A stretch of DNA of 64,000 bases from assembly GCA_964404795.1 (NCBI GenBank), contig CAYOLI010000002.1:71766-135765 (forward strand), given 5' to 3'. Below, piece after piece: positions 19,647 through 25,792 of the stretch. Source of the DNA: an uncultured Candidatus Saccharibacteria bacterium. GTDB lineage: Bacteria; Patescibacteriota; Saccharimonadia; Saccharimonadales; 2-12-FULL-41-12. Within the stretch, counting starts at the first letter, position 1; the number at the start of each line of letters is the position of its first letter. The notes below the pieces were generated by a model, which had not been told where the DNA came from, ran no database searches, and saw only the letters and a program-made list of their open reading frames with translations. Made by a program: the position numbers and the translations under genes.

Positions 19647-20039
19647 TCATCTATTTTTATGCGTTTTTGAGTTTTGCTCAAGCCATTTAGCTATTGCTGG
19701 TACGTCTAATTTCTCAACCGCTACCTTAACAGCGAAATCCTCCAGATCTTTCGGGGTCGCCGTTAGCTGGTAGCCATTCCTCATCAAAAATATACCAGCC
19801 ACAGTTATTGCCGATCGTTTATTGCCATCTACAAAAGGATGATCTCCGATAATATTTCGGACATAAACAGCAGCTTTTTCGTGAATACTTGGATACTGAT
19901 CCTGTCCAAAAACAGACTGCTTTGGAGCATCCACAACAGACATTAACCTACTCTCGTCACGCACACCATGGCTTCCACCAAAATCAGTAACTATCTGGAA
20001 ATGGAGACGAAGAATCTCCTCCAAATCGATATATTTCAT
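19647..20039 (-). CDS. doc: Fic/Doc-family toxin (death-on-curing)
   Basis: The Fic motif HPFVDGNKRSA is present. An ATGA overlap links it to the upstream antitoxin gene. Confidence 0.9.
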   Translation of the reverse strand: MKYIDLEEILRLHFQIVTDFGGSHGVRDESRLMSVVDAPKQSVFGQDQYPSIHEKAAVYVRNIIGDHPFVDGNKRSAITVAGIFLMRNGYQLTATPKDLEDFAVKVAVEKLDVPAIAKWLEQNSKTHKNR

Positions 20040-20257
20040 CTATCTTTTAGATTTTTTAGAGTTTGCCCATACTGATCAACAAATTGATCATATTCTCGCA
20101 TTAAGTCTTTGTGATCTTTTGGTGTCGCAACTGGCTTTATAGTAACTTCCACTTCTTCACCCTTGTCTATACCAGATGCTCGGGCATCTTTCGCAGGGAT
20201 GGTAACAGCTAAGCTATCGCCGACTTTTATGACTTTTTGTACAGATTTAATTACCAT
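20036..20257 (-). CDS. AbrB/SpoVT-type antitoxin (partner of Doc)
   Basis: VIKVGDSLAVTIPAKDARASGIDKGEEVEV is a swapped-hairpin AbrB-type motif. The gene is translationally coupled to doc. Confidence 0.8.
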   Translation of the reverse strand: MVIKSVQKVIKVGDSLAVTIPAKDARASGIDKGEEVEVTIKPVATPKDHKDLMREYDQFVDQYGQTLKNLKDR

Positions 20258-20297
20258 AAATATACACTAGCACAATCATCAAAATATTACAATATTA

Positions 20298-20705
20298 TTA
20301 TAATGTTTTCTGATGCCTATCCAACCATTGTTTTGGGGTTATAATCCGTATGTCTTGGTATTTTTTTAAAACTAGCAAATCCTTATCGCCAGAGATTATG
20401 CATCTTACAGCCCCACCAAGAGCAGTTTCAATTACTTTGTTGTCATCTGGGTCTCTGGACACGTCCACTCTGCACGCACCCAATTCTACATATTTACTGC
20501 GCCCAGCTAGAGCAATAATAAGTGCTTCAAAATCATCTACAAAATCCGGAAACTTACTAAAAAATATTCGGCGAGTCTCACTCAATATTTCCTGCGAAAT
20601 TACCAGTGTATGCCCTTCTCCTACTACTCTCTCGAAGACCTTCCTTGGGTTCCCACCAAACACCAAGGCAGATACCCAAACGGTGCTGTCTATGACTATC
20701 TGCAT
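20298..20705 (-). CDS. PIN-domain toxin (VapC-like)
   Basis: IVIDSTVWVSAL at the N-terminus provides the PIN acidic residue, with ISGDKDLL near the C-terminus. It is coupled to the upstream RHH gene. Confidence 0.8.
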   Translation of the reverse strand: MQIVIDSTVWVSALVFGGNPRKVFERVVGEGHTLVISQEILSETRRIFFSKFPDFVDDFEALIIALAGRSKYVELGACRVDVSRDPDDNKVIETALGGAVRCIISGDKDLLVLKKYQDIRIITPKQWLDRHQKTL

Positions 20706-20935
20706 TATTTTTCGTTGATGATATCGTAAACTTGTTGCTCTGTTTTTATACCAGACTTCTTGCCTCTTTTGTTGGCCCGATCAAAAATTGTTTCTATAGC
20801 TTGTTCGGTTCTTAGCTGGTTAATGATAGATTTTCGCACATAATCGCTACGGCTGGAATACTCCTTTTTTGCTTGTGCATCGAGCTTTTTTACCAGCTCT
20901 TTCGGTAAAGATAGATTGAATGTTTGTGTACTCAT
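20705..20935 (-). CDS. ribbon-helix-helix (CopG-like) antitoxin
   Basis: The RHH beta-strand and helix pattern (FNLSLPKELVKKLDAQAKKEYSSRSDYVRKSI) is present. A 1-nt overlap links it to the PIN gene. Confidence 0.8.
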   Translation of the reverse strand: MSTQTFNLSLPKELVKKLDAQAKKEYSSRSDYVRKSIINQLRTEQAIETIFDRANKRGKKSGIKTEQQVYDIINEK

Positions 20936-20974: not shown

Positions 20975-22138
20975 TTATCTGTTGCCTTTAGCTCGGTTGT
21001 GTGGCTTGCAGAGCATTTCGCAGTTTTCTATATCCGTTGAGCCGCCCTTGCTCCAGGCGCTCACGTGGTCGGCATCCATATCATTTAGTGCCCAGATTTT
21101 GGTCTTACTTGCATCATGGCCAATGGCGCAGTACGAACAGTTAGACTTGCCTTGAGCTTTTGACTTGTCGGTTTGCTTGGCATACGCAGTCTTTTTGATC
21201 GGATCATCAAACACACGAATATTCAGCAATTTAGTGTCTTTTTCTCCACCCAAAATATATTCAAAAATACCTTTTCTATCTTTGACGTCAAAATCTGTAT
21301 ATAGCTTACGAACCTTAGCAGATACTTCCTCTGGGCTATATGTCTGTTCGTGATACTGCTCGTACAATCTGCCCCACTCTAGCCCACGCATTTCGCTCTC
21401 TACATCTGTAAATACGCTAGAAACCCAGCTAATTACCTTATCAAAATACCTTTTTAGCTCGTCTATATTTTTATCATAGCGATGTTTACTCATATATTTG
21501 TCTATTTGTCCGCTACTCACCCACTCTAGCGCTCGCTCTAAAAAGTCTTGGCGATTTACACTGCCAGATATATATGCACTCCATTTCTGTATATTACTAT
21601 TAGCGCTATTACTAAACTCTTCACGAGCTTTTGTCACAAACGGCCCAGAATACACAGCGTTCAAAATTTCTTGGCTATTTAGGGGCACTCCAGCGATATT
21701 GATAGTTCGAAACCAATCTTTTATTTCGGTTTCTTCGCCTTTGCAAACATACACCAGTAGTTTTGTTTCCATAATCTGCTTTTGCATATCACTGGCCAAG
21801 CCAGAAAAATATTGTTGATTACCATTTGCGTCTTTGGCTGCAAAAAGCCCACGTACAAACCTACCAATACTTGTGATACGTTGTTGGCCGTCTAGCACCT
21901 CAAAATCACCACTGTTGGTAGTATTAAAATACAAAAGCCCAATCGGATAACCTTTTATCAAACTATCTATTACCGCAACATCTTTTTTACCATCTGCATA
22001 AATATAACTTCGCTGATATTCTGGCTGAATAGTCAGTTTGCCGCCAAGCCCAAAAAGCCCTTTGCCCTCTAGCTCGTTATATTCAAAACCGTCAACAATA
22101 TCTGCTACAGTAAAATCTGTTTTGAGTGTTGTTCTCAT
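20975..22138 (-). CDS. DUF262 (ParB-like NTPase, GmrSD N-terminal type) fused to a C-terminal HNH nuclease
   Basis: [10 protein letters not shown] and [10 protein letters not shown] are DUF262 hallmarks. The C-terminal CSYC...[32 protein letters not shown] is an HNH motif. Confidence 0.85.
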
Positions 22139-22155
22139 GATTCCTCTTCGCTCTA

Positions 22156-22392
22156 TTAAAAGATCTTTATTATTTCTTCTCTAGAAATTTTATACTCTTT
22201 CTCCAAAGAATTACATATTTCTCTCGCCGTACCTTGTGTTATTTTTCGGTGCCTAGGAACTATTAATATCTTATTACTTTCCTGGTGAATATATTTGCCG
22301 TGCTTGCTACCACCAACACTTACAAAACCTTGCCGGACCAGCAGAGCAATCAGTTTCCTCGTTTTGATTGTACGATAATATCCTAGCCCCAC
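22156..22392 (-). CDS. hicA: HicA-family mRNA interferase toxin
   Basis: 78 aa. [22 protein letters not shown]...[16 protein letters not shown] matches the HicA/YcfA pattern. Confidence 0.8.
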
Positions 22393-22398
22393 TATCTT

Positions 22399-22737
22399 TT
22401 ATTTTGCAAAAACTAAACTTTTGCTTTTTTGGTTTTTCTTGGCGAAATCTATGTCTTCTGGCAACAACGATGGCATACTGGTTTTCATATATTCTGGGAA
22501 ATCCAAATATGTTAGTACTGCATCGTTTACCATCTTGACAATCCCTTCCTCAGTTTTACTCTCAGTAATAATCAGATTATTCAACTTCTCATTGTCTAGC
22601 TTTATAACTTTTGCAGTCCAATATCTATCCTTGTTATCGTATCTAATAACAACATCAATAGAACGAGGCATTTTGTGCTGATATGCCGCTATTTCTACTG
22701 TGCTTGGTTTATTAAGCTTAGAGAGTATTGTTTTCAT
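22399..22737 (-). CDS. hicB: HicB-like antitoxin (N-terminal domain only)
   Basis: The gene ends 6 nt upstream of hicA. YWTAKVIKLDN...TESKTEEGIVKMVNDAVLTYL resembles the HicB partial RNase-H-like fold. No C-terminal DNA-binding domain was recognised. Confidence 0.5.
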   Translation of the reverse strand: MKTILSKLNKPSTVEIAAYQHKMPRSIDVVIRYDNKDRYWTAKVIKLDNEKLNNLIITESKTEEGIVKMVNDAVLTYLDFPEYMKTSMPSLLPEDIDFAKKNQKSKSLVFAK

Positions 22738-22744
22738 GATGTTA

Positions 22745-22753
22745 ATTATACCA
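22745..22753 (-). promoter_or_regulatory. extended -10 promoter element (TGGTATAAT) for hicBA, predicting a leaderless transcript
   Basis: Read on the minus strand, the element is TGG-TATAAT. Only 7 nt separate the -10 from the hicB ATG, and no SD is present. Confidence 0.45.
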
Positions 22754-22885
22754 TAAAATCTCTGTTATCTATCTCAGTATGCCCAGACAAAATGGCGCAT
22801 TCACCTCAATAAAATATGCATAATGACTTTACGCTGGTGTCTTATAAACAAAGAACCTCACGAGGTCTTAAGACAAAGCGAGGAG

Positions 22886-22954
22886 CTACAAATCTATATT
22901 AGCACGCTCAGGTAACTCTGCTACGGTAAAATCTGTTTTAAGTGCCGTTTTCAT
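22886..22954 (-). pseudogene. 22-codon relic of a second DUF262-family gene 5' end
   Basis: It encodes [22 protein letters not shown]. The first 38 nt (22917-22954) match 22101-22138, the start of the intact DUF262-HNH gene, at 33/38 positions. Its ATG overlaps the TGA of the 165-aa gene as ATGA. Confidence 0.7.
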
Positions 22955-23448
22955 GTCTTAATCTCCTCAAGATTATTTTTTTGTCTAAACTCCTTATCTT
23001 GAATAACCACCGTACCACAGAAAACATTGCATCTATCTATAAAGTTATCAAAAAAAATCCTGTCTAATTCACCCTCTTCTTTAACCCTCTCACCGCTACT
23101 AGACATATAATTTATTTTGTACATAAAGTGTACTCGACTATCATTTTGTTTCAACGTAAATCCATGTGTAATCTTATTCCTATCGTTTACAAGATTTTGC
23201 CATTCATTGCCGGTCCAAGTAATAGAACAGTCTTTGTAGATTTTCTTAACTTTCTCGATAATACTCCCTGCTGTTTCACTCAATAGTTGTTCCTGGTCAA
23301 CGGAATGGTCTAACTTTCTCATAAAATGTAATAAAGAATAGTGGGTCATACCAAACAGAACAATTGCAGCACCTATAGTCGCATAGAAATCCCTATCTAG
23401 GTTTAAAATGCCTAGTATATTACTGTCCATAACTTTGTCTATACTCAT
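22951..23448 (-). CDS. hypothetical protein (165 aa) with an Rx4H string (possible HEPN-like)
   Basis: The gene is coupled by an ATGA overlap to the methyltransferase gene. It contains NDRNKITHG, the R-N-x-x-x-H pattern typical of HEPN RNases. The fold is unverified. Confidence 0.5.
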   Translation of the reverse strand: MSIDKVMDSNILGILNLDRDFYATIGAAIVLFGMTHYSLLHFMRKLDHSVDQEQLLSETAGSIIEKVKKIYKDCSITWTGNEWQNLVNDRNKITHGFTLKQNDSRVHFMYKINYMSSSGERVKEEGELDRIFFDNFIDRCNVFCGTVVIQDKEFRQKNNLEEIKT

Positions 23449-24506
23449 TTTTCTACCTTTCTGTACTTGATTAATACCCTAGCGTAGATTTCTTTATTGT
23501 TAATAGTAAATCTTTTACCATAATTCGGATTATCTTTAACATAGCGATCAATACCAATAATCTCGAATTGTTCGGGATTATATTTATCTAAGAAGGTTAT
23601 CGGCACGCCCATCGCACCCTCATAATCCATAGGGATATCAGCAGTTTTATCAACATTTATAGCATCGTAGTTGTCATACCTTGGATAACTCTCTGGCGTA
23701 TATTTTTTATATAGCACCAAGTCCTCATGCCTTTCCTGGTAATCTAAATTGGTGAACCAACGAACGCCTTTTACTCTAATATATTTTTTTCCTTCCTCAT
23801 CTATCCTATAACCAGCAGCTGTTAACGGATAATCATCTGGCACCTGGAATTCCCTATCACCACTATGAATACTCGCTCCCATCCACAATTTATTGTCTTT
23901 AATTAACTTGAAACATTCTTTATAAGTAATTGCATTAACATTACCTATTATCAAAAACTTTTTGTTGTTGCGCACTATTTGGTCAATATATTCTCTAAAC
24001 AAACTAAATGGCGGATTGGTTACTACTATATCGGCTTGCTTCAGTAGCTCCACACATTCGGGGCTTCTAAAATCACCATCGCCACTCAATGGTTGCCACT
24101 CGTTATGCTTGTTTTCGCGCAGTTGCTGGGCTACATCTTTAAGGTCGTATGCGCCATCACCATCTATATCACCAACATCTTTTATAATAAACTTATTGGC
24201 TGTTACTTTTGGTCGCCCTTTTTGTGGGGCTAAAGTTTTATCATCACCAAAAAGTCCTAGCTGAGTGTTAGCAATTGGCGATGGTTTATAGCTAGTAGTA
24301 ATTAACCCTTTTAGCCCCAGATGCTTAAAATTCAGCACAAAATAGCGAAAAAAGTTACTTTCATACGGATCGTCGCAGTTGCAATACACCACTTTACCCC
24401 TAAATTGTTCTTTATAGTGCTTTAGCTCGTTTTCTATATCTACAAGCTGAGTATAGAACTCGTCTTTTTTAGCTTGTTTTGCTTTGTGTAGAGTACGCTG
24501 TGCCAT
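23445..24506 (-). CDS. N6-adenine DNA methyltransferase, M.EcoRI family
   Basis: KDEFYTQ, VVYCNCDDP, GDGDFRS, the catalytic motif VVTNPPFSLFREY (NPPF) and YDNYDAINV...MGVPITFLDKYNPEQFEI are present. From memory, these are collinear with M.EcoRI. Confidence 0.85.
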   Translation of the reverse strand: MAQRTLHKAKQAKKDEFYTQLVDIENELKHYKEQFRGKVVYCNCDDPYESNFFRYFVLNFKHLGLKGLITTSYKPSPIANTQLGLFGDDKTLAPQKGRPKVTANKFIIKDVGDIDGDGAYDLKDVAQQLRENKHNEWQPLSGDGDFRSPECVELLKQADIVVTNPPFSLFREYIDQIVRNNKKFLIIGNVNAITYKECFKLIKDNKLWMGASIHSGDREFQVPDDYPLTAAGYRIDEEGKKYIRVKGVRWFTNLDYQERHEDLVLYKKYTPESYPRYDNYDAINVDKTADIPMDYEGAMGVPITFLDKYNPEQFEIIGIDRYVKDNPNYGKRFTINNKEIYARVLIKYRKVEK

Positions 24507-24508
24507 AA

Positions 24509-25792
24509 TTAAATTTGGCTTATTTTGACTCGTTTTTGATTGGTAGTATTGCGGTCGCGGACTGTTACAGTATCGTCCTCTAGCGTATCGAAATCTACGA
24601 CTACGCAGTATGGAGTGCCAATCTCGTCTTGGCGACGATAGCGTTTACCGATATTACCATTGTCGTCCCACATTACACTATGATGTTTTTGTTTTAAAAT
24701 ATCGTAAACTTCCCTAGCTTTAGCTACCAACTTTGGCTTGTTTTTGAGTAGTGGTGAAACAGCGTACTTAACTGGTGCAATATGTTCTGGTAATGCCAGA
24801 TACACCCTACTCTCGCCATTTTGTTCATCCTCTTTATACGCACTAAGAAGTACAGCCATAACAAGTCGTTCTACCCCAAAGCTGGGCTCTATTACGTGTG
24901 GGATAAAGGTTTCTTGGCGGTCTTTACTGCGATACTCCATACTTTTCCTACTAGCATTTTGAACGTTAGACAAATCGAAATCAGTTCGATACGCCAAACC
25001 TAGCAACTCATCACGCTTATGAGGATAATCGAACTCAAAATCTATGGTTCTTTTGCTATAGTGAGCTCTATCCTCTTCTGGCACCTCTAACTCATGTACT
25101 TTTGACTCGCTAACACCGATTAATGATAAAAATTTGTGAATATCTGAAACCCACTTGTCGAACTCTTGCTGCCAACTGTCTGGATGGACAAAATATTCTA
25201 TTTCCATTTGCTCGAACTCACGCGAACGAAAAACAAAATCGCGAGGACTGATTTCGTTACGAAAGGCCTTGCCCACCTGAGCAATACCAAAAGGAACATC
25301 TGGGTAAAAACTATCGATAATATTTTTGTAATTGGTAAATATACCCTGGGCCGTTTCTGGACGAAGATAGCTGATGGATTTTTCATCTTCGAGGGGGCCA
25401 ACTTGGGTTTTAAACATCATATTAAATGCCCTCGGCTTGCCAAAAGTATCGGTTTTACCACAATTTGGACATTTATTGCCCTCTAAATGATCGGCCCGAA
25501 AACGGTTTTTGCAATTGTTGCATTCTACCAACGGATCGGTAAAAGTATCGGTATGGCCACTTGCCTGCCAAACTTTTGGGTTCATTAAAATCGCGGCATC
25601 AACACCGTACATATTGTCTCTTTTTTCGACAAAAAATTCCCACCAAAGATTTATGATGTTACGTTTTAATGCGACTCCCAGTGGACCGTAATCCCAGGTA
25701 CCGCTTAGTCCACCATACACTTCGCTACCTTGATAAATAAAACCACGACGCTTGCACAAGCTAACGATTTCTTCCATTTTGACTGTACTCAT
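24509..25792 (-). CDS. glyQS: glycine--tRNA ligase (alpha2 dimeric type)
   Basis: RRGFIYQGSEVYGGLSGTWDYGPLG is present, together with class II motifs (FRNEISPR, GVERL). Confidence 0.95.
   Translation of the reverse strand: MSTVKMEEIVSLCKRRGFIYQGSEVYGGLSGTWDYGPLGVALKRNIINLWWEFFVEKRDNMYGVDAAILMNPKVWQASGHTDTFTDPLVECNNCKNRFRADHLEGNKCPNCGKTDTFGKPRAFNMMFKTQVGPLEDEKSISYLRPETAQGIFTNYKNIIDSFYPDVPFGIAQVGKAFRNEISPRDFVFRSREFEQMEIEYFVHPDSWQQEFDKWVSDIHKFLSLIGVSESKVHELEVPEEDRAHYSKRTIDFEFDYPHKRDELLGLAYRTDFDLSNVQNASRKSMEYRSKDRQETFIPHVIEPSFGVERLVMAVLLSAYKEDEQNGESRVYLALPEHIAPVKYAVSPLLKNKPKLVAKAREVYDILKQKHHSVMWDDNGNIGKRYRRQDEIGTPYCVVVDFDTLEDDTVTVRDRNTTNQKRVKISQI

Follow-up and report, generated by a model that had tools for sequence, protein, structure and literature searches.

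Restriction-modification (R-M) systems of Type II such as EcoRI, RsrI and similar systems pair a methylase, which matches Pfam family PF13651 over its full length and carries the motif NPPF, with a separate nuclease gene lying directly downstream. Type II systems with M.EcoRI-family methylases are mobile, sporadically distributed, present on plasmids and phage, and recognized by the Type II models of PADLOC. These traits are shared by a locus that we analyzed in a stretch of 64,000 nucleotides (nt), hereafter the window, from an uncultured Candidatus Saccharibacteria bacterium (contig CAYOLI010000002.1 of assembly GCA_964404795.1). It comprises a methyltransferase (MTase) gene, an overlapping gene for a protein of 165 amino acids (aa) with HEPN-like features, and a gene for a nuclease in which a DUF262 domain is joined to an HNH domain. 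We consider it fairly likely that the locus is a mobile two-gene R-M module that carries extra genes at its internal junction, and that the 165-aa protein is an accessory effector. Coordinates are those of the window, and loci of other genomes are labelled L001 to L087.

The nuclease sets this locus apart from EcoRI. It is not of the PD-(D/E)XK type; instead, an NTPase domain with the motif DGQQR is fused to an HNH domain, and a dependence on nucleoside triphosphate (NTP) is likely. Unlike in EcoRI-type systems, moreover, it is more conserved than the methylase. With the DUF262-DUF1524 enzymes GmrSD, BrxU and SspE it shares the N-terminal DUF262 domain (QR, DGQQR and related motifs) and a C-terminal nuclease of the His-Me-finger kind. 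However, its C-terminus matches the Pfam family PF01844 (HNH, with a cysteine cluster) and not DUF1524, and it is consistently coupled to a dedicated N6-methyladenine (m6A) methylase, whereas the GmrSD-type enzymes of Type IV are standalone and modification-dependent. According to reviews and abstracts, all DUF262 nucleases characterized so far read DNA modifications (GmrSD, BrxU and, dependent on phosphorothioate modification of the host, SspE).

An additional gene within an R-M operon also has precedents: RloC, the HEC genes, TgvAB and PrrC. The last of these lies inside the EcoprrI locus and is a latent RNase restrained by its R-M partner. EcoPrrI is inhibited by T4 Stp (PMC12707154), while TgvAB, within a Type I R-M system of V. 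cholerae, and the 'HEC' genes in Hma clusters are defence genes located in R-M operons (PMC11411939). All of these belong to clusters with several subunits (Type I, BREX or Hma); the module described here, by contrast, has two genes and is Type II-like. In addition, the 165-aa protein is devoid of the N-terminal NTPase domain of PrrC, and its functional coupling to the R-M pair is a proposal made here.

A second parallel is offered by PD-T4-2, a validated anti-T4 system of E. coli ECOR65 listed as 'DUF262, HEPN' (Vassallo et al. 2022; PMC9519451, supplementary tables). HHpred relates PD-T4-2A to DUF262 at 99.7% (PMC9519451), and PD-T4-2B, over residues ~7-163, to HEPN_RiboL-PSP at 97.8% and to HEPN_MAE_28990 at 96.9% (PMC9519451; see also the review PMC10952713). 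There too, a DUF262 protein adjoins a protein of ~165 aa, and the two HEPN families are the same ones that are recurrently matched by the 165-aa family of our locus. The window nuclease also matches the PADLOC model PD-T4-2_A (E = 1.6e-15), more weakly than NsnA and REase_II. Several differences must be set against this likeness: PD-T4-2 has no methylase, no HNH or DUF1524 nuclease is reported for its DUF262 protein, its gene order is reversed relative to the window locus, and PD-T4-2B reaches its HEPN family at 97.8%, whereas the 165-aa family stays below threshold to HEPN and does not match PD-T4-2_B. The parallel is an analogy, not membership.

Two points were known before: defence-finder profiles already recognize the pair as Type II R-M, and R-M operons may hold accessory genes. 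What is new is the tiny HEPN-like family confined to the module junction, the recurrent cargo site in a two-gene module, and the parallel with PD-T4-2. Literature searches returned no paper on the pairing of an EcoRI-family methylase with a DUF262-HNH protein, and no biochemical description of this nuclease family.

An earlier note on this DNA, made by a model from the sequence alone, had assigned the MTase to the M.EcoRI family, and this is borne out. The protein matches PF13651 (EcoRI_methylase) with E = 8.6e-146 and 486 bits, far above the gathering score of 26.4, over profile positions 2-343 of 345, and PADLOC MTase_II with E = 1.6e-127. The motifs cited in the note (DEFYTQ, VVYCNCDDP, VVTNPPFSLFREY and YDNYDAINV) are all present in the translation, as is the catalytic motif NPPF (VVTNPPFSLF). 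A truncation of the MTase by insertion was considered and is ruled out by the full-length Pfam match.

The nuclease gene, which the note had correctly described as a full copy 0.8 kb downstream of the relic, is intact, and both domains are matched in Pfam (GmrSD_N/DUF262, PF03235, E = 3.3e-20; HNH, PF01844, E = 5.7e-8). PADLOC REase_II (PDLC03418) is matched over the full length (residues 10-386, E = 4.3e-85). Across ten homologs, DGQQR, a CxxC pair and the HNH residues D-H...N...N are invariant. The DUF262 domain is a ParB/Srx-type NTPase, and its DGQQR motif suggests, by analogy with other DUF262 enzymes, that the activity of the HNH domain depends on NTP being bound or hydrolysed; such a requirement would depart from the classical definition of Type II enzymes (Mg2+ only). 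The family is very large: at least 8000 homologs, as clusters at 90% identity, were scored, all of them passed E<=1e-10, and the best 120 are 71-86% identical to the window protein. Identity to the nucleases of L001, L002 and L069 is 84-89%, and 66% to that of the syntenic locus L006.

The question arises as to which of these genes form the core of the system. We sampled loci by their nuclease gene: 18, spread over at least six phyla, from contigs of a one-genome-per-species set (Chloroflexota, Bacteroidota, Alpha- and Gammaproteobacteria, Desulfobacteraceae, Selenomonadaceae, Tenacibaculum and Saccharibacteria), 39 metagenome contigs, 2 viral contigs, and in addition plasmids and phages. Neighbouring genes were scored with phmmer on open reading frames (ORFs) or read from the deposited annotation, and duplicate contigs were removed before the tally. 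The broader range extends over Saccharibacteria, Chloroflexota, Bacteroidota, Proteobacteria, Firmicutes, Actinobacteria, plasmids and a phage. Wherever enough upstream DNA was present, an EcoRI-family methylase gene was found upstream on the same strand, the sole exception being a truncated nuclease remnant in L028. In about 41 of ~52 loci (~80%), the methylase and nuclease genes overlap, normally by 4 nt, or directly adjoin; a non-coding gap of 60-210 nt separates them in 6 loci, and coding cargo does so in 5. The three closest nuclease homologs with context all follow an EcoRI_methylase gene, and in L002 the two genes overlap directly. Adjacency persists even where nuclease identity has fallen to 38-42%, on plasmids of Aeromonas, Macrococcoides and Ruania; other plasmids with the pair are those of E. 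faecium and Moraxella.

Because methylase and nuclease genes are directly coupled in ~80% of loci and score with the Type II models of PADLOC, the core of the locus is, as far as sequence and gene order can tell, a widespread mobile two-gene R-M module. As is usual for Type II systems, separate methylase and endonuclease genes are kept as an adjacent pair, here in about 50 loci. The concern, raised in the note, that the MTase might be a solitary housekeeping enzyme is dispelled. On the other hand, the idea in the note that methylase, 165-aa protein and nuclease form a triad outside all classical R-M layouts does not hold: the methylase and the nuclease make up a two-gene R-M system (MTase_II and REase_II in PADLOC), and the 165-aa gene is absent from the ~52 nuclease-sampled loci.

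Individual carriers illustrate the settings in which the pair occurs. In L031 it lies in the Flavobacterium phage vB_FspS_laban6-1 (NC_048834.1, 10219-12581), a lytic-type siphovirus, adjoining the tape-measure gene. In L030, L032 and L081-L083, it is carried by E. faecium megaplasmids, beside erm(A), and by small plasmids of Moraxella and of the lactobacillus family.

Table 1. Features of the window locus, and occupants of the corresponding methylase-nuclease junction in other loci.
Feature	Coordinates	Strand	Basis or remark
Glycyl-tRNA synthetase (GlyRS) gene	25792..24509	minus	Directly upstream of the MTase gene
M.EcoRI-family N6-adenine DNA methyltransferase, 353 aa	23445..24506	minus	Pfam PF13651, PADLOC MTase_II; predicted writer of the module
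165-aa accessory protein, HEPN-like, D-R-N-x-I-x-H	22951..23448	minus	Family alignment, sub-threshold Pfam matches, slot context
Relic, 5' end of a DUF262-HNH gene	22886..22954	minus	First ~39 nt homologous, remainder unrelated; runs to a stop codon
Spacer, non-coding	22738..22885	minus	~150 nt; presumed to have arrived with the hicA cassette
112-aa ORF, presumed antitoxin partner	22399..22737	minus	Separated from hicA by 6 nt
HicA-family toxin gene, 78 aa	22156..22392	minus	Pfam PF07927
DUF262-HNH nuclease gene, 387 aa, intact	20975..22138	minus	GmrSD_N and HNH (PF01844); predicted restriction component
Ribbon-helix-helix (RHH) and PIN pair	RHH 20935..20705, PIN 20705..20298	minus	Side observation
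MazE/AbrB and Fic/Doc pair	MazE/AbrB 20257..20036, Fic/Doc 20039..19647	minus	Side observation
165-aa homologs	L006-L009		In slot
165-aa homologs	L011, L084, L085		In slot
221-aa protein	L010:4996-5661		Ahead of the HEPN-like gene in the slot; RCAFLH string (Rx4H), no family match
Two tandem paralogs of the 165-aa family	L086:657-1632 (also L087)		166 aa (EKRNSIIH) and 163 aa (NDRNKIVH), between methylase and nuclease
Shedu SduA gene	L017:50-1093		PADLOC E = 6.7e-62; alphaproteobacterial metagenome-assembled genome; ends 1 nt before the DUF262-HNH gene
4.2-kb block	L022:746-4976 (= L054; L055 similar)		PD-Lambda-5 A and B, NYN-domain gene, RhuM/PDC-S05 gene
Rpn/YhgA-like protein	L027		Junction cargo
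Small GIY-YIG protein	L043		N-terminal residues judged by eye, without profile scan
149-aa coiled-coil protein gene, unrelated	L001		Methylase-nuclease junction
102-aa coiled-coil protein gene (L003), unrelated	L003/L004		Methylase-nuclease junction
Small protein without assigned family	L029		Junction cargo
Non-coding insert, ~190-210 nt	L012:4792-5000, L013:4815-5000, L046:3078-3263, L071:5815-6000, L015		Upstream of the nuclease gene in L015

The third gene of the locus has a very different distribution. Its start codon overlaps the MTase stop as ATGA, and its product contains the string NDRNKITHG, in keeping with the coupled gene and the motif described in the note. A word-indexed protein search with this protein retrieved only a 99%-identical copy. 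When 1.84 billion cluster representatives were searched exhaustively with HMMER, about 7 true relatives emerged, with 24-55% identity; in all, the family has about 9 members. An alignment-based repeat of that search added no further relatives, and none was found in a scan of viral contigs. Every relative with context (8 independent loci) sits between the MTase and DUF262-HNH genes, the nuclease gene being immediately downstream and the EcoRI-family MTase gene upstream in 8/8 cases; co-occurrence of the three families beyond this genome, which the note had made a test of its proposal, is therefore real. In L006, the synteny with the window extends over RecO, GlyRS, methylase, a 158-aa homolog and nuclease, and the hicA cassette is missing. 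Judging from these occurrences and from its absence in the nuclease-sampled loci, the 165-aa gene is a rare accessory cargo rather than a core component, yet it is strictly slot-specific.

The 165-aa protein diverges faster than both of its neighbours (28-54% identity, against 42-75% for the flanking nuclease), and the gene persists across nuclease clades that are mutually only ~42% identical (L010, L085). Its pairwise divergence correlates with nuclease divergence (r=0.59) but not with methylase divergence (r=0.03), in a small sample of non-independent pairs that includes some partial sequences. The tandem copies of L086 and L087 suggest a heterodimeric version; the upstream paralog of L086, in which K replaces D, aligns with the family in blastp (E=1e-7).

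Is the 165-aa protein a HEPN RNase? The family alignment of seven members has D89, R90, N91, I93 and H95 invariant. R90 and H95 (R-N-K-I-T-H) conform to the Rx4-6H motif of HEPN proteins and are invariant in 7 homologs as well as in the L086 paralog, so that the conservation of R and H anticipated in the note is verified. The Pfam profile HEPN_RiboL-PSP is matched by 4/7 members (best E = 6.7e-4, 20 bits for a cutoff of 28.4), HEPN_MAE_28990 by 2/7 (best 3.9e-4), and HEPN_Apea by one (0.029). The family consensus gives 7.3e-4 with HEPN_RiboL-PSP and 2.3e-3 with HEPN_MAE_28990. These matches cover the motif region, and HEPN_RiboL-PSP and HEPN_MAE_28990 are the only families in Pfam matched by more than one member. 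An AF2 model built on a six-sequence alignment (predicted local distance difference test, pLDDT, 82.7; predicted template-modelling score, pTM, 0.76) has its main helices at residues 19-46, 52-71, 79-94, with the motif at its end, and 130-149, and a three-stranded insert at 96-127; single-sequence AF2 (pLDDT 39) was uninformative. The HEPN assignment suggested in the note is plausible in view of the invariant motif and the recurrent profile matches, but these matches are sub-threshold and the model found no structural counterpart. On balance we regard HEPN membership as likely, though by no means certain.

The junction between methylase and nuclease genes is a recurrent insertion point, a variable slot: unrelated cargo occupies it in about 10% of modules, and known defence genes account for much of this cargo (Table 1). 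The PD-Lambda-5 A and B genes of L022 encode a ParB-like protein and a D12-class methylase. In the case of L017, the contig stops before any methylase gene could appear. The slot proteins of L001 (149 aa) and L003 (102 aa) are small and helical, without enzymatic signature. We also considered whether the 4-nt overlap between cargo and nuclease genes might be a specific junction element, and rejected this: the nuclease gene begins with ATGA in nearly all loci, and any in-frame upstream ORF therefore ends there. The non-coding inserts of ~190-210 nt are found mostly in Chloroflexota-type loci; those of L012, L013 and L015 hold GCTCAGGGTGACA-like repeats, and the insert is possibly an element of the repetitive extragenic palindromic (REP) or miniature inverted-repeat transposable element (MITE) type.

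In the window itself, the slot has a more complex history. The note had recognized, between the 165-aa gene and the intact nuclease gene, a relic of a DUF262 nuclease gene, and from it had proposed that the nuclease gene was ancestrally the third coupled gene; both claims are upheld. The relic ATG overlaps the stop codon of the 165-aa gene. Over its first 39 nt, the relic shares 87% identity with the beginning of the intact gene at 22139..22101 (direct repeat D2; blastn E=1.7e-6), the two copies differing at 5 positions, and the similarity ends after ~nt 39. The intact gene lies 816 nt further on, and the gap, whose contents the note did not mention, is occupied by the 112-aa ORF and hicA. L006 has the uninterrupted order of MTase, 165-aa homolog and nuclease. 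The ancestral order, to judge by these sequences, is MTase, 165-aa gene and nuclease gene with ATGA overlaps on both sides, as is still the case in L006.

HicA is matched by PF07927 with E=7.2e-9 (36.1 bits for a cutoff of 27) and by the PADLOC HicA-like model with E=3e-4. The 112-aa ORF had no match in Pfam, NCBIfam, PADLOC or PDB sequences, neither to HicB nor to another family. In the spacer, an imperfect palindrome at 22856-22883 (inverted repeat I3) precedes a T-rich run; shortly before the 112-aa ORF there is also a TATAAT box. A consensus scan for promoters and terminators stayed at background level and did not call these sites; the spacer nevertheless probably terminates the MTase operon and promotes the hicA cassette, to judge by its sequence. 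Among the loci examined, only this strain carries the cassette. Many metagenome contigs of the same strain show the same 112-aa/hicA arrangement, and since it is identical in contigs from dozens of samples, we consider it stable. One of the samples containing the organism underlies ENA ERZ3756521.

A simple target-site duplication does not account for the relic: 5 of the 39 positions differ, and the intact gene retains its own complete 5' end. The simplest reading would be the import of a segment made of spacer, 112-aa ORF, hicA and nuclease gene. One end of the incoming segment would have been joined illegitimately to the resident nuclease gene, around its nt 39, while the other end would have recombined within or beyond that gene, leaving the 39-nt relic in place and an intact nuclease gene behind hicA. 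This gene starts 17 nt past the hicA stop and has a ribosome-binding site; it would now probably be expressed with the hicA cassette, and no longer via coupling to the methylase operon.

How the components would work together can be sketched from these elements. The methylase would mark host DNA, and the DUF262-HNH nuclease, probably under NTP control, would attack DNA without the mark. The 165-aa protein would be a minimal HEPN-type RNase of the RiboL-PSP/MAE_28990 kind, serving as a second-line effector of the abortive-infection type, and its activity would be licensed by the DUF262 nuclease or by the R-M pair, as in PD-T4-2 or PrrC. In short, the 165-aa protein is most likely an accessory RNase-type effector riding in the R-M module, and possibly gated by it. 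A bolder version can be formulated, in which the DUF262-HNH protein has a dual role: it would restrict DNA without m6A and, through its ParB-type NTPase domain, sense and license the partner HEPN RNase, following the logic of PD-T4-2. Seen in this way, the locus would link classical R-M to DUF262-HEPN abortive infection in both evolution and mechanism, and the junction would be a dedicated plug-in slot that places effectors (HEPN, Shedu, PD-Lambda-5, toxin-antitoxin) under R-M control. We hold this version to be doubtful.

A number of observations weigh against an R-M module with an RNase-type effector. All HEPN profile matches fall below the Pfam gathering scores (~20 bits, against 27-28), and the 165-aa protein has no above-threshold match in PADLOC, NCBIfam or Pfam. 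A Foldseek search with the AF2 model yielded no hit of significance, either in PDB (best E=0.33) or in BFVD, and neither a profile search of PDB sequences with the 165-aa family nor the PADLOC PD-T4-2_B model gave any match for its members. Phmmer and profile searches of PDB sequences likewise found nothing for the MTase, the nuclease or the 165-aa protein. An antitoxin or partner for a HEPN toxin is not evident. As to the R-M pair, the nuclease is 62-86% and the methylase 46-67% identical to the window proteins; a nuclease more conserved than its methylase is, in our experience, atypical for Type II pairs, and this may indicate that the nuclease is not the sequence-specific partner. The palindrome-avoidance analysis revealed no target: GAATTC is found 6 times in the window where 12.1 are expected (z about -2, an indirect statistic), and it gives no signal in the pooled host loci.

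Four other scenarios are considered. The first is that the 165-aa protein is not a nuclease at all but a regulator or adaptor of the R-M pair, acting as a brake or timer, or a fast-evolving sensor or decoy for phage anti-restriction proteins. The failure of the model to match HEPN or any nuclease structure, together with the sub-threshold Pfam scores, would fit, as would the rapid evolution of the protein, the non-enzymatic look of the small helical slot proteins in L001 and L003, and the position of the gene, translationally coupled directly ahead of the nuclease gene where a controller might be expected. However, the residues that are invariant are precisely R-N-x-x-x-H after an acidic residue, the recurrent profile matches are to three HEPN families, Pfam, NCBIfam and PADLOC gave no match to a helix-turn-helix or another domain of regulators, and the tandem paralogs of L086 fit a dimeric HEPN active site. 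We consider this scenario unlikely, and retain the accessory RNase-type effector.

Because the nuclease is more conserved than the methylase, a logic resembling that of Ssp stays a rival for the R-M pair itself. The DUF262 domain would sense m6A on host DNA and thereby activate or tune the attack of the HNH domain, as a nuclease or a nickase, on invaders, in the way that SspE relies on phosphorothioate. Higher conservation is indeed expected of a reader of the mark rather than of a sequence, the DGQQR NTPase motif is invariant, and modification reading is what the characterized DUF262 nucleases have in common. Nonetheless, PADLOC places the nuclease among Type II restriction enzymes, a methylase-first operon with overlapping genes is equally that of a classical R-M system, and the C-terminus is PF01844 HNH and not DUF1524. 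We find this rather improbable, and conventional restriction of DNA without the mark is preferred.

Alternatively, the methylase, the Rx4H protein and the DUF262-HNH nuclease might be an obligate three-component system functioning only as a whole, a new methylation-linked type of defence as suggested by the note. Every known 165-aa homolog indeed lies between the other two genes, usually with 4-nt overlaps on both sides, and the association spans nuclease clades only ~42% identical. But ~80% of the nuclease-sampled modules do without a third gene, and the 165-aa protein is found in 0 of ~52; the closest nuclease relatives (84-89% identity: L001, L002, L069) hold unrelated cargo or none; and in the window the hicA cassette has uncoupled the nuclease gene from the other two in an arrangement that is stably maintained. 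What survives of this proposal is the co-occurrence of the three families, not the triad as a functional unit, and we judge it very unlikely in comparison with a two-gene module bearing an accessory effector. Finally, a decaying system, in which the hicA insertion broke the operon and left remnants without concerted function, can scarcely be credited: the locus does hold the truncated start of a nuclease gene and has lost its former translational coupling, but the nuclease gene is full length with all invariant catalytic residues and its ribosome-binding site after hicA, the MTase and 165-aa ORFs are intact, and the arrangement recurs identically in contigs from dozens of samples.

DUF262 domains are usually seen as readers of modified foreign DNA (Type IV) or of phosphorothioate marks on self DNA, whereas here a very large DUF262-HNH family appears to supply the restriction activity alongside a conventional m6A methylase. 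If the nuclease were both methylation-sensitive and NTP-dependent, the known role of DUF262 enzymes would be wider. The junction slot provides a comparative handle for new small defence or regulatory genes, and the 165-aa family is a minimal candidate for the coupling of a HEPN effector to a DUF262 sensor, which is still unexplained in PD-T4-2. The module is also frequent in Saccharibacteria, where R-M barriers affect genetic tractability.

The surroundings of the module deserve a few remarks. A tRNA scan and an Rfam scan at gathering score over the whole window found no tRNA gene and no Rfam family. The module genes and the GlyRS gene are all on the minus strand, and the MTase gene starts 2 nt after the GlyRS stop (24504-24511), so that the module is wedged against an aminoacyl-tRNA synthetase gene. 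A tight neighbour of this kind is seen again in L003 (7164-7175), where a cysteinyl-tRNA synthetase gene starts 10 nt beyond the nuclease stop. Downstream of the window nuclease gene (19647-20935, minus strand) lie two further toxin-antitoxin pairs; with hicA, three modules of the toxin-antitoxin type are packed against the R-M module. In the syntenic relative L006, an FKBP gene is found at the site of these two pairs. Over the window, the GC skew is negative almost throughout, and the majority of long ORFs are on the minus strand.

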